DNA of 31,633 nt from a virus: positions 1 to 31,633 of the IMG/VR virus record IMGVR_UViG_3300019471_000061. One strand, given 5' to 3'. Shown here piece after piece: positions 4,001 through 31,633 of the stretch; within the stretch, counting starts at the first letter, position 1; each line of letters starts with the position of its first letter. The notes under the pieces were generated by a model. The model saw only the letters and a program-made list of their open reading frames with translations. It had not been told where the DNA came from and did no database searches. Made by a program: the position numbers and the translations under genes.

Positions 4001-4076
4001 TGGAGCCACGATCGGGACTTGAACCCGAGACCTACGCCTTACCATGGCGTCGCTCTACCAACTGAGCTATCGCGGC
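4001..4076 (-). tRNA. trnT: tRNA-Thr, anticodon GGU, with an encoded CCA
   Basis: Manual fold of GCCGCGA-TA-GCTCAGTTGGTAGAGC-G-ACGCC-ATGGTAA-GGCGT-AGGTC-TCGGG-TTCAAGT-CCCGA-TCGTGGC-T-CCA. All four stems pair and the anticodon loop contains GGT. Confidence 0.85.
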
Positions 4077-4336
4077 ATCTGATTTATTAATAATATGCCC
4101 GAGTCAGCGTAAAACGTCCACAGTAAGCGTTGTAGCTTACCACGGTAGCGCTCATCCATGTAATAATTACAGTAAATGATTTCTACCATTGTAGATTTCG
4201 TAAGGTTAGAGGTTTCAACGTACACATTGCGAAGGCTCTGTGCACATCGCAATCATATGTTCCTATATTAGCAAACAAGAGCTATTTTGTCAATAGCTTA
4301 AGCGCAATTAAATAAAGATTCTATAGATTTATTAAA

Positions 4337-5206
4337 TTAGGCGACAGCTCCTATCTTTAATCTGTCATAAACATTTATCATTCCGCTATCAAGCGCGTGC
4401 AGATAAACTTCAGTCGTTGCAGAATTCGAGTGTCGCAATAATCTCTGTGCTTGTGAGATTGACGCGCCACGCTTCTGAATATCTGTAGCGAAGCTGTGCC
4501 TCAGCGCGTGCAGGTAGAATCCGTCAATTCCTACTTTTTCGAATTCTCGACGCATTTTATATCTAAGCTCGTCAATACTATACGGCCGTCCGTCTTCATA
4601 AGCTGGAGATATCCATAAATAATCTGTAATTCCTTTGAAGACGATCCACTCATCCATCCACTTTTTCGTGCGAGGCGTCATGAAGACTACCCCTGCTTTA
4701 TTTCCTTTTCCGATAATGTGAATTTCTCGACCGCTTATATTCTTAAGCCGTAAATTTCTTAATTCTGTAGCGCGCAATCCTGAATCGAACGCTAGAGATA
4801 TCAATAATCGCGTCATAGGTTCAGCATTCTCAATAACTTTCTCGACTTGATCGCGTGTGAACCAATTTCGACGCGGAGGTTTCTCTTTCGCTGGCTCAAT
4901 TAGTCTAATTTTTACGGATATGTCGTAATCCATATCTCTCAAGTATTTCAAAAAAGCTATTATGTGGCTGAGCCTGCTATTAATAGTTCTACCTGAGACT
5001 ACGTTTCCAGTAGCCGCTCCAGACGACTGCATCGCCATCCATCTATTAATATCTCTATTCGTTAATTTCTGCATATCGTCAACAATTTCTAGTTCCGCGA
5101 ATTTATTAAGCACTCTAACTTTCGTATCCATTGTCTGCTCTGTAAACTGACGAGCTCGACAATAATTCAAGTACTCTTCGATTTGCTCATAAATAGGTTT
5201 ATTCAT
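4337..5206 (-). CDS. int: Tyrosine recombinase or integrase, XerC/D-sized at 289 aa
   Basis: R..HxxR..Y catalytic signature: LRATELRNLRL, HALRHSFAT, LRHSNSATTEVYLHAL. It sits adjacent to a tRNA gene. Confidence 0.85.
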   Translation of the reverse strand: MNKPIYEQIEEYLNYCRARQFTEQTMDTKVRVLNKFAELEIVDDMQKLTNRDINRWMAMQSSGAATGNVVSGRTINSRLSHIIAFLKYLRDMDYDISVKIRLIEPAKEKPPRRNWFTRDQVEKVIENAEPMTRLLISLAFDSGLRATELRNLRLKNISGREIHIIGKGNKAGVVFMTPRTKKWMDEWIVFKGITDYLWISPAYEDGRPYSIDELRYKMRREFEKVGIDGFYLHALRHSFATDIQKRGASISQAQRLLRHSNSATTEVYLHALDSGMINVYDRLKIGAVA

Positions 5207-5488: not shown

Positions 5489-5863
5489 CTACGTCAGAAG
5501 ATTAAATTGACGTTTCATCTCTGTTAATTTGTGCAAATTCGCGATATTTGTAGGCGATTCTAGCTGCTCGCTCATCTGTTGTGCGTGGTGCTCTTTAGCT
5601 GACTTAGCTTTAGCTTGAGCTATTAACTTACGCAACCAATCCACAGTCTTTGACAAATTTTTTCTGGACCAAATAAAAGCAAAATATTTGCGTGGATCAC
5701 GTTTTCGTTTCGCTAATTTCACAGAAAACTCAAACTCTTTTTCGTAATTAATTTGTCGATTTCGAAACATCGGCAGATATTTATCATCAGAAATAAGCTT
5801 TGTCGCTTTGCCTAATTTTTTCTGCATTTTTTCAATACGTCGCTCATCAATTGTAATGTTCAC
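5489..5863 (-). CDS. Hypothetical basic protein with a GTG start and poor RBS
   Basis: ORF track. Lys/Arg-rich C-terminal half. It is transcribed toward int. Confidence 0.4.
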   Translation of the reverse strand: MNITIDERRIEKMQKKLGKATKLISDDKYLPMFRNRQINYEKEFEFSVKLAKRKRDPRKYFAFIWSRKNLSKTVDWLRKLIAQAKAKSAKEHHAQQMSEQLESPTNIANLHKLTEMKRQFNLLT

Positions 5864-5945: not shown

Positions 5946-5994
5946 ATCCTACGTTAATAGTTTATTCACTGCCCTAATTTTTGTCAATAGCTAA

Positions 5995-6381
5995 GACGGT
6001 TCAATCCTACCGCGAAATTTGTCGTGGTCTGATTTTGTTCAGTCAAAAAGAAATAACGCCAGCAAATCATCTAGCTCGATTATTCAGCACGGCGTGACTA
6101 TGCTCAATGTACCCGCTCAAACGATTGAAAGCGCTGTCCAAATCACTTTCCCGAAATCATTCACGTCAGGTACAATCCCGACTGTAGTTTGTAGTTTTGG
6201 TGGATATACTGGTCCTGGCGATGGTTGGACAGACACGCCAAATTCGTCATGGGGTGGCTGCGCTTTTAGCGCGGTAGGTGTTACGAACACCTCATTTACA
6301 GCCAGATGTCGACGTTTCGACGGTGCGACACTTTTAGGAGTGTATTATGTGAACTGGATCGCGATTGGCGAAGCTGCTTAG
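5995..6381 (+). CDS. Start-less alternative tail-fibre C-terminal cassette (cassette 3), H-type-lectin-like. It opens in frame with DGSILP directly after a TAA
   Basis: The protein aligns with the C-terminus of the fibre 9722..10666 (AVQITFPKSF / AVQVNFPKKF; VNWIAIG / ISWIAVG). Its 5' end gaCGGTTCAATCCTACC reproduces the fibre junction sequence in the same phase. The only start is TTG, with no RBS. Confidence 0.5.
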   Translation, partial: DGSILPRNLSWSDFVQSKRNNASKSSSSIIQHGVTMLNVPAQTIESAVQITFPKSFTSGTIPTVVCSFGGYTGPGDGWTDTPNSSWGGCAFSAVGVTNTSFTARCRRFDGATLLGVYYVNWIAIGEAA

Positions 6382-6389
6382 TCAGCATA

Positions 6390-6422
6390 AAAATCCGCCC
6401 CCATTTTCAGAGGGCGGAAAGA
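6390..6422 (-). terminator. Intrinsic terminator, CCGCCC-N11-GGGCGG, with a minus-strand U-tract
   Basis: On the minus strand the hairpin is followed by TTTTTAT. On the plus strand there is only aaag. Confidence 0.55.
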
Positions 6423-6655
6423 GAGCACGGATGTTCAAACCATGCGTTTGCAGTTTATCACTATTTATTAGATTCCGCAATAGCAACGTCAGCAACGACC
6501 AGTCGTCGTATGTATTCGCTAACTGTCATATTCAACTCGGCGGCACGCTTGACGATCATCTCGTGATCGCTCTCTGAAACTTTTATATGTATGTGCTTAT
6601 TTTTCACATTCTACCCTTCTGCCGGCTACAATGCCGCCGGCGGGGCTGTTAATAT

Positions 6656-7084
6656 TTAATAAATAGCATTGACGGTAAAGTATTTCAAGCCATCGTAGCG
6701 AATTTCAGCCTCTTCTGCGCCATTCTGTAGCATATAGTCGATAGCTTCCCGTAAAGCTTCGCTAGAGACGAATATCTCAGCCTCTTCATCGTCATCATCG
6801 TAAAAGTGAATAGTACCGTCGTCATCAACAACTGCTTCATAATCTTCATATCTATCTAAACTCTTTACTGTTTCGATAATATTATCAAGCATTGCTTCTT
6901 CGTCGAATTCAATAGAGATATCTTCAATGGTTAAGTTTTCACTTTTGCTAAATCTTTTACGAAGTTCAGTGCGCATTATCTGCTCTAGTTCTTCTTTGTC
7001 ATTTCGTAGATCAGCACTTGCTTCAAATTGTATTTCTTGAGTTGGTTGGTCGTCTCGATAAAACCATCCTGTGTATGTTGCCAT
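6656..7084 (-). CDS. Very acidic hypothetical protein of 142 aa. Possibly a DNA-mimic or anti-restriction type
   Basis: ORF track. AAAGGAG RBS. Runs of D and E (DDDDEEAE). Similar GC-rich elements (AACAGCCCC...GCCGCC) flank the gene. Confidence 0.55.
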   Translation of the reverse strand: MATYTGWFYRDDQPTQEIQFEASADLRNDKEELEQIMRTELRKRFSKSENLTIEDISIEFDEEAMLDNIIETVKSLDRYEDYEAVVDDDGTIHFYDDDDEEAEIFVSSEALREAIDYMLQNGAEEAEIRYDGLKYFTVNAIY

Positions 7085-7107
7085 TTTATTCTCCTTTCTT
7101 GGCGGCG

Positions 7108-7302
7108 GCGGTTGAGGGGCTGTTTATTTTTTAGTGTTTGTGTTTTCTAGGTTTTATTTTCTAGTTTTGATTTTTCGTTTATTTACAATCTCCAATTTTA
7201 CAGTGATTTTAATTCTGAAAAACTGAAAGGTTGATTTGAACATTTTTACTCTCTTTCTTGCCGCCGAATTGTTAATTGTTGCTTGGTTGCCCCTCAACCA
7301 TG
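7108..7302. repeat. 11-12-bp GC-rich inverted repeat (ggttgaggggc / gcccctcaacc) bracketing about 170 bp of AT-rich DNA that holds direct repeats (ttttctag x2)
   Basis: Reverse-complement match between about 7109..7120 and about 7292..7302. Confidence 0.4.
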
Positions 7303-7471
7303 TCTTTAGTATAGCAAACGTGTTACCAAACGTCAACACTTTTTGTGAAAAAAGTCAGAGATTTTTTGTTGAACCTGTGGAAAACTCACTTCCCGTAGAA
7401 TATGTAGCGATATTCTTTATAAAGTCTAATGATAATACGTTTTAACATAAGTTTAATTTTACCAAATGAAA

Positions 7472-7506
7472 AAAGCTACCGGGCTTGCAAACACAGTAGC
7501 TTAGTT
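7472..7506 (-). terminator. Intrinsic terminator closing the lysis cassette
   Basis: On the minus strand, aagctactgtgtttgcaagcccggtagctt is followed by TTTTTCATTT. Confidence 0.6.
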
Positions 7507-7518
7507 AAAGGTAGAGTT

Positions 7519-7566
7519 TTTCAACTGTTCGGGATTTCCGAACAGTTTAGTTGTTCGGTATTTCCG
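7519..7566. repeat. Two tandem hairpins, each built on TTCGG-N5-CCGAA. The first has a 10-bp perfect stem, aactgttcgg/ccgaacagtt
   Basis: Seen directly. They lie between the holin stop and the terminator. Confidence 0.4.
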
Positions 7567-7568
7567 AA

Positions 7569-7826
7569 TTACTCAACAGCTTCTTTCATCTGCCGCACCA
7601 AGTCTAAGATGATAGTCTTAGCTGCAGACAATCCAGCCGCGATTGCAGACAGAGCAGTAGCCATTGTCAGCGCGTATAATTCGTGCCAGCTTGCAGCGAA
7701 TAGCAAGTTCACTAAGTTTACCCCAGCTAATAAGAACGTCGCGATAAACGTCTGTACAAACGTCCACGCAGCACGAATAACTACGTCTTTATAGTTTATA
7801 TTCTTTAATGCTTCTAGTGATTTCAT
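7569..7826 (-). CDS. Holin, two transmembrane segments, Gram-positive phage type
   Basis: 85 aa. Two hydrophobic helices and a charged C-terminus. It lies directly downstream of the endolysin. Confidence 0.75.
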   Translation of the reverse strand: MKSLEALKNINYKDVVIRAAWTFVQTFIATFLLAGVNLVNLLFAASWHELYALTMATALSAIAAGLSAAKTIILDLVRQMKEAVE

Positions 7827-7835
7827 ATCTCCTCC

Positions 7836-8834
7836 TTATTTCTTAAACTTAAAAATACTCATCAAAAAATCGATAATCTTCTCTAACAAACTTTTATTCT
7901 TAGCGATGTCTTGACTTAATTTGCCGATAGACCTCATAACGTCTTCGTTTGTAGGTTGTGGTGCTAGCGGTTGCTCCTGCGGCTTTTCTTTGATTTGAGG
8001 TGCCTGTTGCAATTCTGGTGTCTTTGGTGCTGGTTGTGGCTGAGGGCGTTTTTCTGGTCGTGGTGTACCTGCATCGCCATTCGCTAATTCGCGTACTCGC
8101 TCTGCTAGTACCCAAATCCCGTCATCTGCCATTTTTAGCTGTAGGTAGCGTTTGTTGTTTTCGGTAGTTTCATCTAATATCTCCGTCGAGCCAACAATTC
8201 GGAAGTAATCACCTGTGTTTATCTCACCATCTAGTAAGTAACCGTCTTTGTCTGTCTTTACTGCTACAGAAACTGGTACACCGTTGTCCTCCCAATCGAA
8301 CTCATCAATCAATCGGTTGCATCTAATTTGTCGTAAGTCGAATACAGTTGCTACTTCATCCGCGTAATAAACTTCAGGTAATGCTACACGCTTTGTTTCT
8401 TTTGGTTTACCTACATATCGATAAAATGCATATGGCGGGCAACCTGAGGCACTCCAGAGCCAGTCGTGATTATCTATAACAATACCCGCTTGATAGCGAC
8501 AGTTAATGACGTTATCAGCGTCCACAAACATTCCTGTATGACCCAACGCACCTCCAGAATTGCCTCGAATACCCCAGATAAAAATATCTCCACGTTGTGT
8601 GTCTGCCTCGCCGTTTGCGTCTTCAGGTACACGAACCCAGCCATTCTTTTCCAGAGCGTCGAATAGTGTGTCTGTGTTGCCAATCCAGTAGCTAGCAGGT
8701 AAAAGACCTGCTTCTTTTAGAGCGTGATATACAGAGCTTGAGCAGTCGTATGAATTTGGACCATTTCGGCTCTCCATTGAGTAAAAAACTCGACCTTTAC
8801 GTGCATAGAACCACGCTAGTGCTTTTTCTATCAT
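7836..8834 (-). CDS. Endolysin: an N-terminal CHAP peptidase domain followed by a binding region and a Pro/Gln-rich linker
   Basis: Catalytic Cys in the YDCSSSVYHAL context and His in the GALGHTGMF context. The C-terminus carries a PQPQPAPKTPELQQAPQ linker and an amphipathic tail. Confidence 0.8.
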   Translation of the reverse strand: MIEKALAWFYARKGRVFYSMESRNGPNSYDCSSSVYHALKEAGLLPASYWIGNTDTLFDALEKNGWVRVPEDANGEADTQRGDIFIWGIRGNSGGALGHTGMFVDADNVINCRYQAGIVIDNHDWLWSASGCPPYAFYRYVGKPKETKRVALPEVYYADEVATVFDLRQIRCNRLIDEFDWEDNGVPVSVAVKTDKDGYLLDGEINTGDYFRIVGSTEILDETTENNKRYLQLKMADDGIWVLAERVRELANGDAGTPRPEKRPQPQPAPKTPELQQAPQIKEKPQEQPLAPQPTNEDVMRSIGKLSQDIAKNKSLLEKIIDFLMSIFKFKK

Positions 8835-8835
8835 T

Positions 8836-9198
8836 TTATTTCCTCCTTGCTTGAGTTTGAATTTCTTCTTGTAATTCTGTGATTGCTTTGTTCTGTTGAA
8901 TTAAGTTATTAGTCGCATAAATAGCCAGTGTGACAAGTGCGACTGCGAATAATTTCGCTACGGTGCTTGTTGCTAGTTTCCAAAAGTTCATAACGCCTGC
9001 GACCTCAGTGTATTTGACGTATTTTTTTTCTGACTCTTTTTCGTGTTTTGCTAGCTGTGCTTGAGTAATATTAGCTTGTGCGATATTTTCAATTCGCTCT
9101 AGCATGACAGTATGCTTGTCTACGCCATCCTTAATGTATTCGACCTTAGCTTGTAACGCTCCAAATTCTTTAGCTGATACTTCTGGTTGTTCGTTCAT
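8836..9198 (-). CDS. XhlA-like lysis-associated membrane protein. The likely start is MNEQPEV
   Basis: N-terminal coiled coil and a C-terminal TM helix (LFAVALVTLAIYATNNL). It is the first gene of the lysis cassette. Confidence 0.5.
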   Translation of the reverse strand: MNEQPEVSAKEFGALQAKVEYIKDGVDKHTVMLERIENIAQANITQAQLAKHEKESEKKYVKYTEVAGVMNFWKLATSTVAKLFAVALVTLAIYATNNLIQQNKAITELQEEIQTQARRK

Positions 9199-9214
9199 AA
9201 TTTTCCCCATAAAA

Positions 9215-9260
9215 AAACGACCACGTGAAGTGATCGCAATCTATTGACTTTATTATAACA
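9215..9260 (-). promoter_or_regulatory. Late promoter-hairpin element, copy 7 (TGTTATAAT-N11-hairpin-U7), upstream of the lysis cassette
   Basis: Minus strand reads tgTTATAATaaagtcaatagATTGCGATCACttcacGTGGTCGttttttt. Confidence 0.5.
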
Positions 9261-9356
9261 CAGACAACTTAAAAAATACGAACAAACATGCGAGATAAAG
9301 CACCCCAAAAACCCTCGCGTGCTTGCTCGCATTTCTACTTATATTTTATCATAAAA

Positions 9357-9375
9357 CAATCCTACCACAGAAACT
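9357..9375. repeat. Left 19-bp inverted repeat, CAATCCTACCACAGAAACT, at the head of cassette 2
   Basis: It is the exact reverse complement of 10077..10095. In frame it encodes ILPQKL. Confidence 0.85.
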
Positions 9376-9721
9376 GTCGTCAATTTCTAGAGGTGATTAT
9401 TCTACTGACGAGGTAGATACTGGTAAAAAATGGATAAATGGCAAGACTATTTATAGAAAGACTTTTGTGATGGGTGGACTTGGTGTAGCTACCACTGTCA
9501 AAAAACCGCACAACATCTCTAAATTGGATATAGTGATTAGGATTCAAGGTATCGCCAAAGAAAACTCAATTGGTGCGACGATTAACCTGCCACATGCTGC
9601 CGATCAACAACCATATACTGTCACTGTATATGCCGATAACACGAACGTGAATATTCAAACATACGCCGATCAGAGCGGATATGTTCAGTCTTATGTGACT
9701 TTGTGGTATACGAAAAAGTAG
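9357..9721 (+). CDS. Start-less alternative tail-fibre C-terminal cassette (cassette 2), carrying a KKWINGKTIYRK-type domain. It is inverted relative to the fibre gene
   Basis: There is no ATG or RBS. The ORF-track start is a TTG. It abuts the fibre gene stop-to-stop (TAGCTA). It shares the in-frame junction ILPQKL. Confidence 0.6.
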
Positions 9722-10666
9722 CTAAATCGTACCTACAGCGATCCAACTTATGCCGTGATTTGCACCACCGAAAATGCCTGAAGTAGAAGCCGTGATAGTG
9801 GTGCCTGTTTGACTAAACGATCCACACTCGATATTTGTGCCAGCGCCGATTTTCTGATCGAAACTTGCTGGAGATGTTGGCGTGTTTCGCGTATATCCGA
9901 TTAAAGTCGGAATGACTGCATATACTTCCTTGAATTTTTTAGGAAAATTAACCTGTACAGCTTGTTGTTTTCCGCCATTTCCATAAAATGACACCCAGCC
10001 CGATTGAATAACTAGCGAACCAGAGACAGCCTGTGCTGAGTTATTAGCGCTAAATGACAGCATATCAGTAGTCTTAAGTTTCTGTGGTAGGATTGAACCA
10101 TCTTTAATATTCTTTGATTCTATAGTACCATCTGAAATTAAATTAGCATTATTTATTCTGCCGTTTGGCAAGGTCGTCATTTTTCGCAAGTCGGTGATGT
10201 CATTACTGCTAATCGCTGTTGCTCCAGCGCGCTTTTTGACTCTAGCTAGTATAATAAATGGATTTGACGCACCAATCGCCGCCTGAATTGCGGAATTTGT
10301 TGGATCGGCTGGATTTGACGCTGCAGCTCCAGAGATAGCTTTTAACTTAAATACGTCATTAGTATTATCTGTTACAGATTGGTCCCCTGCTACATTTCTA
10401 TCGACATAAGCTACAATAACCGCATTTATAGGATTTGAAGGAGACGCTGCTCCGACATTAACCGTTTCTGTTCCGATAACATTTATATTGTAAGATGGAT
10501 CACGCCCAACAAGCGCAGTGCCTGCGTTGACTGTGACATTCATTCCACTTCCAGCCACTACATCTAATCCATCTGCCACTTCTCCGCTTAAAGCATCGCG
10601 TATAAGTTGTGTTAGTGCTGCAGGACTGTGCATTCCTCCGCCGTAATTGAAAACTCGCCTTGTCAT
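9722..10666 (-). CDS. Tail fibre or receptor-binding protein with an H-type-lectin-like C-terminal domain. The true ATG is at 10666, with RBS ggaaaggtag
   Basis: Gly/Ser/Thr/Asn-rich beta-type sequence. It is the last gene of the tail module. The C-terminus resembles the 6019 cassette. Confidence 0.7.
   Translation of the reverse strand: MTRRVFNYGGGMHSPAALTQLIRDALSGEVADGLDVVAGSGMNVTVNAGTALVGRDPSYNINVIGTETVNVGAASPSNPINAVIVAYVDRNVAGDQSVTDNTNDVFKLKAISGAAASNPADPTNSAIQAAIGASNPFIILARVKKRAGATAISSNDITDLRKMTTLPNGRINNANLISDGTIESKNIKDGSILPQKLKTTDMLSFSANNSAQAVSGSLVIQSGWVSFYGNGGKQQAVQVNFPKKFKEVYAVIPTLIGYTRNTPTSPASFDQKIGAGTNIECGSFSQTGTTITASTSGIFGGANHGISWIAVGTI
10077..10095. repeat. Right 19-bp inverted repeat, AGTTTCTGTGGTAGGATTG, inside the fibre gene
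   Basis: Reverse complement of 9357..9375. It sits at the boundary between the constant and variable parts of the fibre. Confidence 0.85.
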
Positions 10667-10705
10667 AATTCTACCTTTCCGCGCCGCCAGAAGGGCTGAA
10701 TAAGA

Positions 10706-10751
10706 AAAAATTGCCACCAAGCGGTCGCAATTTATTACTATAATTATATCA
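10706..10751 (-). promoter_or_regulatory. Late promoter-hairpin element, copy 1 (TGATATAAT...AATTGCGACCgcttGGTGGCAATT-UUUUUCUU), upstream of the fibre gene
   Basis: Reverse complement of 10700..10752. Confidence 0.5.
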
Positions 10752-11178
10752 CATTAAGTGAACCTCGACCCGTCGCTATGACGAAAAACTTAATCTTGAC
10801 CACTTCATTTCCAAAATATTCAACTCGCACTGTGAATTTCTGATTTTTTGGGTCTGAGACGAATTGACCGATAGTGTTTATCGATAGTTGAGCGTTTGGC
10901 GCGCCAACAATTTCGTATTTTGCGCGTACGGATAATCCAGCTACATTTTTATCTGAGTGAAATATCACGTTAAACTCTTTTCCTTGCAATCCATTCGGCA
11001 TCGTCGGTAGCTGTTGTGAGTAATCCCAATTAGAATTTGTCGATATTTTAAATACTTTAACGGCGTCAGCTCCGACAATTTGACGCTCTTTTTTTTCACG
11101 CTGACATCTCTCTAGTTGTTTTAATTCGTATAAAATGTCAGGTTCTGATTCAAGCCTATTTACTGCCACGGCGTCCAC
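10744..11178 (-). CDS. Baseplate or receptor-binding-associated protein, one of a paralogous trio
   Basis: N-terminal coiled coil followed by a beta-rich C-terminus. It shares S.NS.WD...PNG motifs with the 11160 and 11596 proteins. Confidence 0.45.
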   Translation of the reverse strand: MDAVAVNRLESEPDILYELKQLERCQREKKERQIVGADAVKVFKISTNSNWDYSQQLPTMPNGLQGKEFNVIFHSDKNVAGLSVRAKYEIVGAPNAQLSINTIGQFVSDPKNQKFTVRVEYFGNEVVKIKFFVIATGRGSLNVI

Positions 11179-11603
11179 TCCTCAAAACTAATATCGCACG
11201 CGTCATTAGCGATAATCTGAAACTTTAAGTTTATCGGCTGACCCATTGTGCCAAAAATTGGAACAAACCATTTCATCACGTTGTTTTGAGACGGCGACAG
11301 AGGTATTCCTATGACTGAATAAACTGCATTAAGCGCGCTTGATTGAATCGCTAGTCTGCCTACTAAATTTCCGCTATTTTTTGACCTAGCAGTAACTATA
11401 ACCACAGTCCAACCCTCGCCATTAGCGACCTGCCCTGGTCTGTTTGGAGCGACAGACATATCCCACTGAGAATTAGAAGCGGATAACTTCATTTTAATTT
11501 GATCACCGCCGATAATTTGACGCGTTTTTTCGTCGTTCATTTCTCTTTTAATACTGGCGATTTCGTCTATAATATCTCCAACGTTAATTCTGCTTCTACT
11601 CAT
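11160..11603 (-). CDS. Baseplate or receptor-binding-associated protein, paralog
   Basis: See 10744..11178. It starts MSR, like the 11596 protein. Confidence 0.45.
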   Translation of the reverse strand: MSRSRINVGDIIDEIASIKREMNDEKTRQIIGGDQIKMKLSASNSQWDMSVAPNRPGQVANGEGWTVVIVTARSKNSGNLVGRLAIQSSALNAVYSVIGIPLSPSQNNVMKWFVPIFGTMGQPINLKFQIIANDACDISFEEWTPWQ

Positions 11604-12174: not shown

Positions 12175-13251
12175 CTACTCTTGTTGCGCGATGATATTAT
12201 CTACACTTAAATTGTCGAACGTTAGCTTTACTTCTTCTGCGTCATTTTCGTCAACCGTTACCTCGATTTTTTCGATTCTGTAAAATCCGTGAATGTGCTC
12301 AAACATAATGTAGCCATTCATTTCAGCGTAAATCGTATCACCTAAACCAACGTCATTTAAGTCTAGAATACCGTCAGACAGAGTAAAACTCGGTAGCTCG
12401 CGAACATCTTTCAACATCTCCAAAATACCGTTCGTATTTTCTTGAAGTGTCGATTCTCTCTCAACTGAGCTAAATGTAACGACTTTTTCGCGACGATATA
12501 ACGCTTGTCGTGAGAATGGATCTGTAGCTGTAGCCACAATAGCGTCGTCGCCATTTCCACTGCCAATTCCGATGACATAATTAGCTAGACTATCCACCGA
12601 GCGCTCAAAACCAAATCCCGCAACGTTCTTGGGATAAACTAGTCTAATGTCTGGTCGATAATTACCCATCGCGTCAAAAGTATTGAACTTTTTGTCGGGC
12701 GTGAACTGAAAATCTGGTCCATCTATAACGTTACTCAGTCTCGTTAAAAAATCCTTCACATTAGCTCTGGTCTGATTACGCTGTCGAGGATTTTTTCCTA
12801 AAGACGTAAATTCACCGCGACGTATGCCAAAATCTCCGTCTTGTTTGTTTTGATACTGATTAATGACGCCCCACATAATATCTCCTTGGCGGACATTATT
12901 GTAGGCCGCGTCAACATACGCGTCTTTGAAGTAATTGAGATAACCAGTAAAACTCAATTCAATGTCTACTGAGGGGTCGTTTGGTGAAAAATCGATTTTA
13001 ATAAGGTGTGCGCCAATTCTGTCCTTGCCATTTCTCACAATTCGTATATCTGTCGTACCTGCGTCCATAAAATCATACGGTCGCATTCCTGTTTTTTTGA
13101 CATATTCTTCATATCTCGCTAAATCCATTCGAAAACTGACAGTTTCAGCGGCGTTTCTCTGCTCTGTCCACTTCAAACCTTGAGCCAGATGACGAATATC
13201 GCCCAGGCATTTTCCATTTTTGCTGTAAACCTCAATTTTGTAATCTGCCAT
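12175..13251 (-). CDS. Tail-associated lysin or baseplate hub N-terminal domain (Tal-like)
   Basis: Position after Dit and size of 358 aa are typical of siphovirus Tal. Confidence 0.55.
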   Translation of the reverse strand: MADYKIEVYSKNGKCLGDIRHLAQGLKWTEQRNAAETVSFRMDLARYEEYVKKTGMRPYDFMDAGTTDIRIVRNGKDRIGAHLIKIDFSPNDPSVDIELSFTGYLNYFKDAYVDAAYNNVRQGDIMWGVINQYQNKQDGDFGIRRGEFTSLGKNPRQRNQTRANVKDFLTRLSNVIDGPDFQFTPDKKFNTFDAMGNYRPDIRLVYPKNVAGFGFERSVDSLANYVIGIGSGNGDDAIVATATDPFSRQALYRREKVVTFSSVERESTLQENTNGILEMLKDVRELPSFTLSDGILDLNDVGLGDTIYAEMNGYIMFEHIHGFYRIEKIEVTVDENDAEEVKLTFDNLSVDNIIAQQE

Positions 13252-16653: not shown

Positions 16654-17667
16654 ATGAAGTCTACAATATCGCCAATTGATAAAAAGAATGTTAATTTTGA
16701 GTTGGAAGAATTATTTCCTGCTTGGTTTTACATTATAGCTATTATATTTTTCATATGTCGGCTACCGAGCGGTCTTATGGATGCTATATCGAGCACTTTT
16801 ATGATTTCGAGCGTTTTACTACTAGGAAATGTCGCTTTTAAGTGGAAAAAGCTGAATAATACTTCTCGTATTGTGGCTTTGTGTGTAGTTTTTTGTGCTT
16901 TTTGTGTTGGCGGTGCGCTATCGAATAACAATCACGTGGCTGAACAGCAAAAATCCAATACTCAAACAACTCAGCCAGAGCAAGCTCAAAAACAACCAGA
17001 AAAACAGCCAGAAGCTCCAAAATTTAATCCAGCATTAGCTCAAGACGCAAATTTTCAGCAAGGCGAAAAAGACACTGTAACAGAGGTAATAGATGGTGAT
17101 ACGATTCGCACGTCGAACCACGCCAAAATCCGTCTAGTAGGGCTTGATACACCTGAAACTAAGCACCCGCGCAAGCCCGTCCAGTGTTTTGGCAGAGAAG
17201 CTTCTCAAAAAATGAATGATTTAGTCGCTGGTAAAACGGTTTATTTAGTTGCAGATCCTACTCAAAGCAGCAAAGACAAATATGGACGAGATTTATTCTA
17301 TATTTATCTAGAAGACGGCACGAACGTAGCTTATACGATGATTCGCGAAGGCTACGGTCATGAATACACGTATAATTCTAATCCTCACAAATGGCAAGCG
17401 CAGTTCCAAGAAGCTCAGAGAATAGCTATACAAGAAAATAAGGGCTTGTGGGCGGCAAATACGTGTGGCGGCAACACCGAAAAGCCAGCAGATCAACAAG
17501 CGCAACCTGCTCCAGCTCAAAATCAGTCTGCTGATGGTGTAACATTTAGCAGTTGTCGAGAAGCTCGCGCTGCTGGATATAGCAATATGCGTCGTGGCGA
17601 ACCTGGATATTCGCCAGATTTAGACAGAGATGGCGACGGAGTTGCTTGCGAAAGTCGTAGAAGATAG
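16654..17667 (+). CDS. Membrane-anchored extracellular thermonuclease: N-terminal TM helices, an SNase domain and a C-terminal Excalibur Ca-binding domain
   Basis: VIDGDTIR...IRLVGLDTPE SNase signature. C-terminal DLDRDGDGVACE Excalibur motif. Plus-strand promoter TTGTAT-N16-TATAAT, with the ATG 7 nt after the -10, so the mRNA is leaderless. Confidence 0.8.
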   Translation: MKSTISPIDKKNVNFELEELFPAWFYIIAIIFFICRLPSGLMDAISSTFMISSVLLLGNVAFKWKKLNNTSRIVALCVVFCAFCVGGALSNNNHVAEQQKSNTQTTQPEQAQKQPEKQPEAPKFNPALAQDANFQQGEKDTVTEVIDGDTIRTSNHAKIRLVGLDTPETKHPRKPVQCFGREASQKMNDLVAGKTVYLVADPTQSSKDKYGRDLFYIYLEDGTNVAYTMIREGYGHEYTYNSNPHKWQAQFQEAQRIAIQENKGLWAANTCGGNTEKPADQQAQPAPAQNQSADGVTFSSCREARAAGYSNMRRGEPGYSPDLDRDGDGVACESRRR

Positions 17668-31343: not shown

Positions 31344-31633
31344 TAGTCTTCCTCAATTCCAAAATAAATCTTCCAATCTCGCTCATTTTCTTTGATGGAT
31401 TTTTCAGCTTCTGCTCTGGTTTTGTAACGTACGATTTCTCCATCATCATAGTAATCAAGTTCACACACGGCGAGCGTTTCACATCCATGGTCATAATAGA
31501 CCATCCAGCCGCCTTTTCCATTCTTAAAATCTGGCTTAAAGTCTGACGTTCGTTGCAGTCTGACTTTGGCTAGTTTGCGTTCTCGGGCTCTTTCGCATTC
31601 TTTTTCAGTGCGATAAATCATACCCAGAGCTAG
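31343..31633 (-). CDS. C-terminal part of hypothetical protein, paralog A (wrap-around gene). 31507..31633 duplicates 1..127
   Basis: Open frame to the window edge. It continues in 128..445. Confidence 0.6.
   Translation of the reverse strand, partial: LALGMIYRTEKECERARERKLAKVRLQRTSDFKPDFKNGKGGWMVYYDHGCETLAVCELDYYDDGEIVRYKTRAEAEKSIKENERDWKIYFGIEED

Follow-up and report, generated by a model that had tools for sequence, protein, structure and literature searches.

Can the receptor-binding protein (RBP) of a phage exchange its C-terminal tip by DNA inversion and, if so, by which enzyme? This question is raised by the tail fibre gene of IMG/VR virus record IMGVR_UViG_3300019471_000061, whose whole stretch of 31,633 nucleotides (nt) is referred to here as the window. 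An original prediction, made from the sequence alone, had proposed that the fibre ends in an invertible receptor-binding segment with the geometry of the Mu G segment or of a shufflon. The analysis described below leads, with considerable confidence, to the view that the locus is a programmed multiple-inversion (shufflon-like) switch for the RBP of a temperate Saccharibacteria siphophage.

The fibre open reading frame (ORF; 9722..10666, minus strand) encodes 314 amino acids (aa) from an ATG and contains one arm of an inverted repeat. The 19-bp sequence CAATCCTACCACAGAAACT occurs exactly at 9357-9375 (+) and at 10077-10095 (-) and nowhere else in the window, even when 3 mismatches are allowed; it has 0 matches in 100 dinucleotide-preserving shuffles, and the pair, with 701 nt between its arms, ranks top in an inverted-repeat search of the region. 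As had been foreseen, both copies encode I-L-P-Q-K-L in the same codon phase, and the coding segments that they head meet stop to stop, the stop of the plus-strand ORF at 9721 abutting that of the fibre ORF at 9722. The minus-strand copy belongs to site F (10077..10099, minus strand; GGTTCAATCCTACCACAGAAACT), which spans codons G190-L197 inside the fibre gene and at which alignment blocks between differently arranged relatives stop; the junction itself falls at residues 192-197, and not near residue 205 as first placed. On the N-terminal side of site F, the constant part of the receptor-binding tail protein (10100..10666, minus strand; residues 1-189) lies outside both invertible segments and is 94-98% identical among relatives with different C-termini. 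On the other side, module A (9722..10076, minus strand, stop codon included) forms the currently expressed C-terminal domain, with an H-type lectin fold and a probable receptor-binding role. The plus-strand copy, site H (9357..9375, plus strand), adjoins non-coding DNA upstream of the holin gene and heads module C (9376..9721, plus strand), a silent, promoterless alternative C-terminal domain that converges with module A. The small invertible segment (9357..10095; 739 bp, A|C) holds only these two abutting modules.

The claim that the oppositely oriented frame lacks an ATG also holds, no in-frame ATG being present in the module C ORF; an ATG further upstream, at 9288, does not share its frame in the window but does so in relatives. 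In the stretch corresponding to 9288-9356, relatives P0001, P0002 and P0047-P0052 have an ATG-initiated ORF (MRDKAPQKPSRACSHFY...) that continues into the silent cassette without a change of frame, and the extended cassette is listed by gene callers as a hypothetical protein of 144-149 aa. A difference of 1 nt puts the ATG out of frame in the window, which suggests that the extension is fortuitous.

The original layout, a repeat of two copies around a single segment of two modules, proved to be only part of the locus: the exact 19-bp pair and the 739-bp segment stood, but the repeat and the segment each have a further counterpart. Together with its flank, the fibre-side repeat reads GGTTCAATCCTACC..., and a third copy of GGTTCAATCCTACC, site I (5998..6011, plus strand), has 14 nt in common with site F; an extended form, AAGACGGTTCAATCCTACC, runs from 5993, with a TAA stop at 5992-5994 just before. 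Site I opens the frame of module B (6012..6381, plus strand), a third silent C-terminal cassette, of the H-type lectin family, which has no other opening. There are thus three sites and three cassettes, and a second, large invertible segment (5998..10099; 4.1 kb) comprises module B, a 142-aa gene, an 85-aa membrane protein, the endolysin, the holin and modules C and A. The holin-like gene and the endolysin (7836..9210, minus strand; holin 8836-9210, endolysin 7836-8834 with Amidase_5 and ZoocinA_TRD domains) would be carried along in the large inversion. Sites F, H and I all carry the core CAATCCTACC in frame, F being inverted relative to H and I, and site F is asymmetric, its core extended by GGTT on one side and by ACAGAAACT on the other. 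The locus consequently combines a constant RBP N-terminal part with at least two promoterless alternative C-terminal cassettes (A, C and B), and the constant part ends, and every cassette begins, with the same short asymmetric repeat in phase.

In the mechanism proposed for this arrangement, the constant part (residues 1-189) would end at site F, and cassettes A, C and B, beginning with the same core in the same phase, would be interchangeable behind it. Only the cassette joined to F would be translated, the other two having neither start codon nor promoter. Recombination between the inverted sites F and H would flip 739 bp and swap A for C, and recombination between F and I, likewise inverted, would flip 4.1 kb, lysis genes included, and bring in B; each flip would give the phage another lectin-like tip and, as a presumed consequence, another cell-surface receptor or host strain to adsorb to.

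Natural genomes contain the products of these reactions. When the site copies of relatives are classed by left flank (F, H or I) and by module head (A, B, C or D), the arrangement F-A / H-C (or H-D) / I-B is found in the window and in L005, L021, L022, L024 and L025, and F-C / H-A / I-B in L006, L008 and L009. These last three carry exactly the predicted inversion of 9357..10095, with module A in the silent position; in L006, block 10572-11310 aligns forward to 9357-10095, and both flanks align in reverse. A third arrangement, F-B / H-C / I-A, occurs in L002, L033 and a 31.8-kb contig seen as L023 and L106, where the holin and endolysin are inverted relative to the tail genes and the recombinase. 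The natural variants therefore differ by inversions with breakpoints at the repeats. Module B is joined to the constant part in L002, P0063, L023, L026 and L033, and module C in P0066, P0067, P0070, P0071 and P0072; by cluster size, the fusion types comprise 239 member sequences for A, 208 for C and 108 for B. The products of the two reactions were also constructed in silico. The F x H product is an in-frame protein of 311 aa with 95-97% full-length identity to the natural proteins P0066 and P0070-72, in agreement with the expectation that a flip of about 739 bp would fuse the fibre to another domain without a change of frame, and the F x I product is an in-frame protein of 316 aa, 92.7% identical over its full length to the natural P0063. 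The fibre of L002, with 314 aa, matches the window protein over its first ~195 residues and then differs, its C-terminus being a Pfam H_lectin domain of the module B type. L002 was at one point regarded as an assembly fold-back, an explanation that was dropped, module B and the large inversion accounting for it; P0038/L001 (IKDGSILPQKLSS...), considered as a flipped junction, was dropped as well, being a silent cassette with a longer repeat and no fusion.

The same principle recurs in a second phage lineage (L011-L091 and L118-L169, e.g. L048 9166-11361), in which the constant part is 35% identical, the junction motif is IVLPRHL and the integrase is 40% identical to that of the window. Here 18-19-nt repeats, TATAGTCCTACCACGACA, occur at three places, the RBP gene is placed after the lysis genes, and the invertible segment of 1,072 bp consists of the constant N-terminal part and a 100-aa upstream ORF, the constant part flipping between module B, which lies to one side of it, and an A|C pair to the other. 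Over 6,185 bp, L060 and L064 show 2 mismatches (99.97% identity) and are set apart by one 1,072-bp inversion, the block ends overlapping by the 19-nt repeat, and L057 and L011 are related by two nested inversions, with both segments inverted. Viral and metagenome collections contain distinct junction sequences for all three fusions, 22 in which the constant part runs into A, 27 into C and 11 into B, and all arrangement states recur across several sub-lineages. In 130 copies of the lineage-2 site, an 18-nt block is at least 90% conserved, compared with 30-60% in the flanks, two of which are non-coding, and the Leu-Pro codons CTA CCA are fixed. Both lineages share the site core TCCTACCAC. One sub-lineage (L027, L029, L034-L038; around 10560 and 11265) carries another repeat, ACAATACAAYCAC, at the same junction together with a further cassette type, G; its integrase, of 311 aa and 39% identical, forms a third clade, and a fusion of the constant part with G exists as P0116.

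These comparisons bear on whether the locus is an active switch at all. The silent cassettes could be relics of horizontal exchange and the arrangements old, fixed rearrangements, as might be argued from the fact that most comparisons involve contigs from different samples and that module alleles can differ by 10-13% between arrangements (L006 and the window are 87% identical in the segment). Such static mosaicism is very improbable, given that L060 and L064 are inverted relative to each other at 99.97% identity, that all states recur in several sub-lineages, that the frame from site to stop is intact over its full length in 119 of 121 silent cassettes despite the lack of a start signal of their own, and that contig ends accumulate at the sites, lying within 160 nt of one in 10 of 70 site-bearing loci. 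A further case is L003, a megahit k141 contig of 4,055 bp that corresponds to the large segment, is 100% identical to the interior of L002 and ends on both sides exactly at AAGACGGTTCAATCC, the point at which the F and I flanks diverge. A graph built at k=141 should not break at so short a repeat, and both arrangements were therefore, in our own estimation, present in the L003 sample. Contig L004 is broken at the sites as well, the two contigs coming from ERZ27319491 and ERR7564261. Taken as a programmed switch, the locus would invert frequently, in the manner of phase variation.

They also bear on how the strands are exchanged. Flank-specific bases (GGTT vs AAAA) keep to the flank and module-specific bases (AAAC vs AAAT) to the module; because the polymorphisms to one side of the core thus go with the flank and those beyond it with the module, the crossover can be placed within the shared sequence CAATCCTACC(ACAGAAA). 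Homologous recombination or template switching at short inverted repeats, by the phage RecT and exonuclease or by host RecA and without a dedicated site-specific recombinase, would be an improbable source of this pattern, even though the phage encodes RecT and a PD-(D/E)XK exonuclease (DUF3799), its genome has no dedicated invertase gene and repeat length in relatives varies from 14-19 nt up to more than 40 nt (L001, L031, L033). The sites are short (10-19 nt shared), sharply bounded and block-conserved beside non-coding flanks while their neighbours drift, which makes RecT-dependent recombination less likely; the same core is kept across lineages with different surrounding sequence, the crossover maps inside it every time, and homology offers no reason for the fixed synonymous codons CTA CCA. 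The recombination thus appears to be conservative and site-specific rather than homologous.

What the inversions exchange can be approached through protein structure. In an AlphaFold2 model of the fibre, the N-terminal domain (about residues 30-160) and the C-terminal domain (213-314) are confident and the linker (162-212) is of low confidence; the recombination site (192-197) falls in this linker, ahead of the C-terminal lectin domain. Foldseek relates module A to the foot of the R1-pyocin fibre (6cxb; E 1.8e-4, root-mean-square deviation 2.9 A over 97 columns), to the H-type lectins 3wmp and 2cgy (discoidin II) and to C-terminal domains of Pseudomonas phage tailspikes, so that the H-lectin-like character attributed to the expressed tip is upheld at the level of fold, the Pfam match of module A to Gp53-like_C being weak. 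The model of module C is a beta-sandwich distinct from module A, with a predicted local distance difference test score of 77 and weak Foldseek matches to fibre tips (E >= 0.1); searches of PHROGs and Pfam returned no match for this module, and domains of its type are found at the C-terminal end of stand-alone fibre proteins (173 and 209 aa) in other phages (P0008, P0018/22/25). A PDB sequence search with the constant part gave nothing meaningful. On these models and fold matches, a receptor-binding role is well supported for modules A and B and plausible for module C, and inversion would be expected to alter host range.

Several points weigh against this reading of the locus. The coexistence of both orientations within one clone or lysate is deduced from contig breakpoints and from near-isogenic contigs of different samples. 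The lysis genes and the tail operon are convergent in the F-B state, and a promoter scan for the flipped lysis genes found nothing above background. A recombinase without bias would, in addition, remove the lysis block, sites H and I being directly repeated. The sole recombinase, moreover, occupies the position of an integrase, its attachment (att) core, in a tRNA-Thr anticodon arm, is not significantly like the inversion sites, and the core TCCTACCAC is common to both lineages in spite of integrases that are only 40% identical and att cores that are unrelated. These last features also make an invertase supplied by the host a serious alternative, to which we return after describing the enzyme that the phage does encode.

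A tyrosine recombinase most likely does the inverting. Serine recombinases (PF00239, PF07508) are absent from the scanned ORFs and from the precomputed Pfam annotation of the homologs of the remaining ORFs; with the genome complete and circular, the original expectation of no serine invertase and a single tyrosine recombinase is sustained. That recombinase (4337..5206, minus strand; 289 aa, Pfam PF00589 at 1e-24) is the only site-specific recombinase of the genome, an armless, Xer-like enzyme that holds only SAM-like core-binding and catalytic domains and has its nearest relatives in XerA, XerC and XerD (XerA and XerD in the PDB). Among NCBIfam models, it matches only Xer and integron models, all below cut-off, and no Rci model; tblastn against GenBank phages returns only generic Xer proteins and integrases, at no more than 33% identity.

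By position, this enzyme is probably the prophage integrase. Its gene lies at the prophage edge in L005, L008 and L009, beside the att junction, and host tRNA-Thr junctions are found ~190 nt from it in L005 and L009. In both prophages the phage sequence ends in ...GGATGAGCGC and is followed by the 3' part of a host tRNA-Thr(GGT) from the anticodon stem onwards, the switch occurring after GAGCGC; because phage sequence passes into the host tRNA at this stem, the attP core (4136..4160, minus strand; ..GGATGAGCGC|TACCGTGGTAAG..) can be read as a mimic of the anticodon arm of host tRNA-Thr(GGT). Compared with the inversion sites, the best 22-nt matches of the att core do not exceed those of shuffles and their registers are inconsistent. 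The idea that the inversion sites mimic the att core or a tRNA T-arm, raised as a speculation in the original prediction, is rejected accordingly, the core lying in the anticodon arm and its similarity to the sites not being significant. The att core of the sister lineage, the palindrome GTGATTTATATAAATCAC, is likewise not significantly similar to the inversion sites.

The integrase may also be the invertase. In its favour, it is the sole candidate encoded by the phage, the distance from its gene to site I is 0.8 kb (in the sister lineage, 1.6 kb to the outermost site), and the invertase of the Rin shufflon, described in Bifidobacterium prophages, is XerD-like and armless as well (PMC6109161). 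We regard this assignment as tentative, with a prospect only just below even. A recombinase acting in trans from the Saccharibacteria host or from another resident element, with the phage enzyme confined to integration and excision, is a possibility of appreciable weight that we would nevertheless not expect to prevail. It would account for three integrase clades (35-41% identical) with unrelated att cores (the tRNA-Thr anticodon arm vs GTGATTTATATAAATCAC) that nonetheless use a common inversion core, and for the lack of significant likeness between att and inversion sites, and it has a precedent in an invertible phage locus without a flanking recombinase for which a trans-acting invertase was proposed (PMC6109161). 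The shared core, however, could also stem from common descent of the coding motif (I/V)LP; all 52 of 52 metagenome stretches with the exact 18-nt lineage-2 site are phage cassette contexts or short fragments, with 0 in an evident host locus; the recombinase gene stays within 0.8-1.6 kb of the outermost site in both lineages; and the third integrase clade is associated with the different repeat ACAATACAAYCAC, which fits a co-variation of phage enzyme and site. If the phage enzyme is responsible, one armless Xer-like recombinase would both integrate at a tRNA-Thr anticodon arm and run a three-site shufflon on att-unrelated sites, including a 4-kb inversion of the lysis cassette, a dual role that we entertain with some doubt. 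The alternative would be equally unusual, an ultra-small Saccharibacteria host providing a trans-acting invertase that its phages exploit.

The window ends are identical over 127 nt (positions 1-127 and 31507-31633), which identifies it as a circularly closed, complete phage genome of ~31.5 kb; its GC content is 41.9%. Pfam and PHROGs scans reveal a siphophage gene set, with small and large terminase, a Mu-like portal/F fusion, a gpT-like capsid, a tube protein, tape measure protein, Dit, the fibre gene, holin, an Amidase_5 endolysin, RecT with the DUF3799 exonuclease and one tyrosine recombinase. GenBank phages yielded no DNA or protein match to the fibre region, module A, module C or the listed phage proteins. 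The relatives are prophages within Candidatus Saccharibacteria genomes and metagenome-assembled genomes (P0112; L010-L014), and the host is for this reason taken to be a member of the Saccharibacteria (TM7); judged from its genes and relatives, the window is a temperate siphophage of this oral host group. Homologs of the RBP N-terminal domain, at 35-41% identity, are also present in prophages of Cryobacterium, Arthrobacter and Pseudarthrobacter (L015-L018, L020), members of the Actinomycetota, the phylum on which TM7 bacteria live; a search for cassettes beside the homologous RBPs of these actinomycetotal prophages found none.

Several neighbouring features deserve mention. Between site I and the recombinase lies a 124-aa protein without a family match (5489..5863, minus strand), kept beside the recombinase in both lineages (L048 homolog 12202-12618). 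A good sigma-70-like promoter (5959-5987, minus strand; TTGACA, 17 nt, TAAACT) is located in the non-coding flank just outside site I and is directed at this ORF and the recombinase gene. The silent cassette and the lysis genes are separated by a terminator-like hairpin with a T-run behind it (9217-9237, minus strand), which directly precedes the start codon of the holin gene. The phage also bears a complete tRNA-Thr(GGT) (4001..4076, minus strand; ARAGORN), which is absent at the prophage junctions. As no intact tRNA is present at the junction, integration appears to split the host tRNA, and the phage copy, ~60 nt from the att core, is probably its replacement. In place of the tRNA-Thr junction of L005 and L009, L008 (15852-18476) has a gene for an 874-aa HsdR-like helicase/nuclease between the integrase and host rpmG. 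Finally, a protein with staphylococcal-nuclease and Excalibur domains and a hydrophobic N-terminal region is encoded antisense amid the tail gene block (16654-17667, plus strand) and is kept in relatives L005, L006 and L008.

To our knowledge, there is almost no experimental knowledge of phages of Saccharibacteria or of other bacteria of the candidate phyla radiation (CPR), and we know of no described receptor or host-range determinant; our literature search found no paper linking Saccharibacteria phages with a shufflon or with RBP inversion. Against this background, the locus pinpoints the RBP of a Saccharibacteria phage and its exchangeable lectin-like tips, and suggests that two abundant oral TM7 phage lineages hedge among at least three to five tip types. 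It would extend RBP shufflons of the tyrosine-recombinase type beyond actinobacterial prophages and provides a compact test case for one simple Xer-like enzyme serving as integrase and multi-site invertase, or for a host invertase. On the practical side, such loci break metagenome assemblies and yield "orphan" ORFs that are called hypothetical proteins.

Among known systems, the Mu G, P1 C and p15B Min segments switch host range through the serine invertases Gin, Cin and Min, with multiple segments in Min. The Mu G and P1 C layout, with the constant N-terminal part outside and convergent variable parts inside the invertible DNA, is found here as well, but no tail-fibre assembly (U/U') gene co-inverts behind each module, a serine recombinase is absent, the sites bear no relation to gix and cix, and the host is not an enterobacterium. 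The R64/IncI shufflon, a plasmid system, undergoes multiple inversions at asymmetric ~19-bp repeats that vary the C-terminus of the pilus adhesin PilV; its recombinase Rci is a dedicated enzyme of 384 aa with a C-terminal domain, and deletion between direct repeats must be avoided. The present locus resembles it in having several inverted copies of an asymmetric ~19-bp repeat that bound segments (three copies here, with repeats of 18-19 nt in the second lineage), in switching the C-terminus of an adhesin, in implicating a tyrosine recombinase and in the need to avoid deletion between direct repeats. It differs in that the target is a phage RBP and not PilV, the candidate enzyme is a 289-aa Xer-like protein rather than an Rci, and the repeats are unrelated to sfx.

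Of the systems described so far, the Rin shufflon of Bifidobacterium breve and B. longum prophages comes closest. In it, a constant Rc part is combined with promoterless Rv cassettes, each placed after an 11-bp rix site, TTCCCTAACCC, and the armless, XerD-like tyrosine invertase gene rin flanks the tandem Rv array and a separate lambda-like integrase is present (Mavrich et al. 2018, PMC6109161). Eggerthella lenta prophages carry the same Rin-type system, with Rv genes of the H-type lectin kind (PMC8778435), a fold that module A shares. Like the Rin prophages, the phage described here is apparently a temperate siphophage whose constant RBP N-terminal part is accompanied by variable C-terminal cassettes that lack promoters and begin with a short asymmetric repeat, the place at which inversions occur, with no serine invertase and with a tyrosine recombinase implicated. 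Unlike them, it has a single recombinase, at the att junction, instead of a dedicated rin and a separate integrase; its cassettes form a convergent pair and a further cassette 3.3 kb away, instead of a tandem array; its repeat is CAATCCTACC... and not rix; and its host is a CPR bacterium rather than an actinobacterium. Owing to this dispersal of the cassettes, one inversion carries the lysis genes, and in the sister lineage the constant part itself flips.

A second locus of the tRNA-Met-integrated bifidophages 689b-1 and Bb423phi2 offers a further parallel: a segment of ~500 bp, which contains the 3' end of a structural gene with a small ORF convergent to it, inverts at the 8-bp repeat CAGGGTTA with no flanking recombinase, and a trans-acting invertase was proposed (PMC6109161). 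The inversion of a gene 3' end and a convergent ORF at a short repeat is common to both loci; the bifidophage locus, however, has a single segment, whereas the present one has three sites, many natural states and domains identified as probably receptor-binding. The principle is therefore known from tyrosine-type phage RBP shufflons, and what appears to be new is the operation of such a switch without a dedicated invertase, its dispersed layout, the sequence of its repeat and the phylum of its host.

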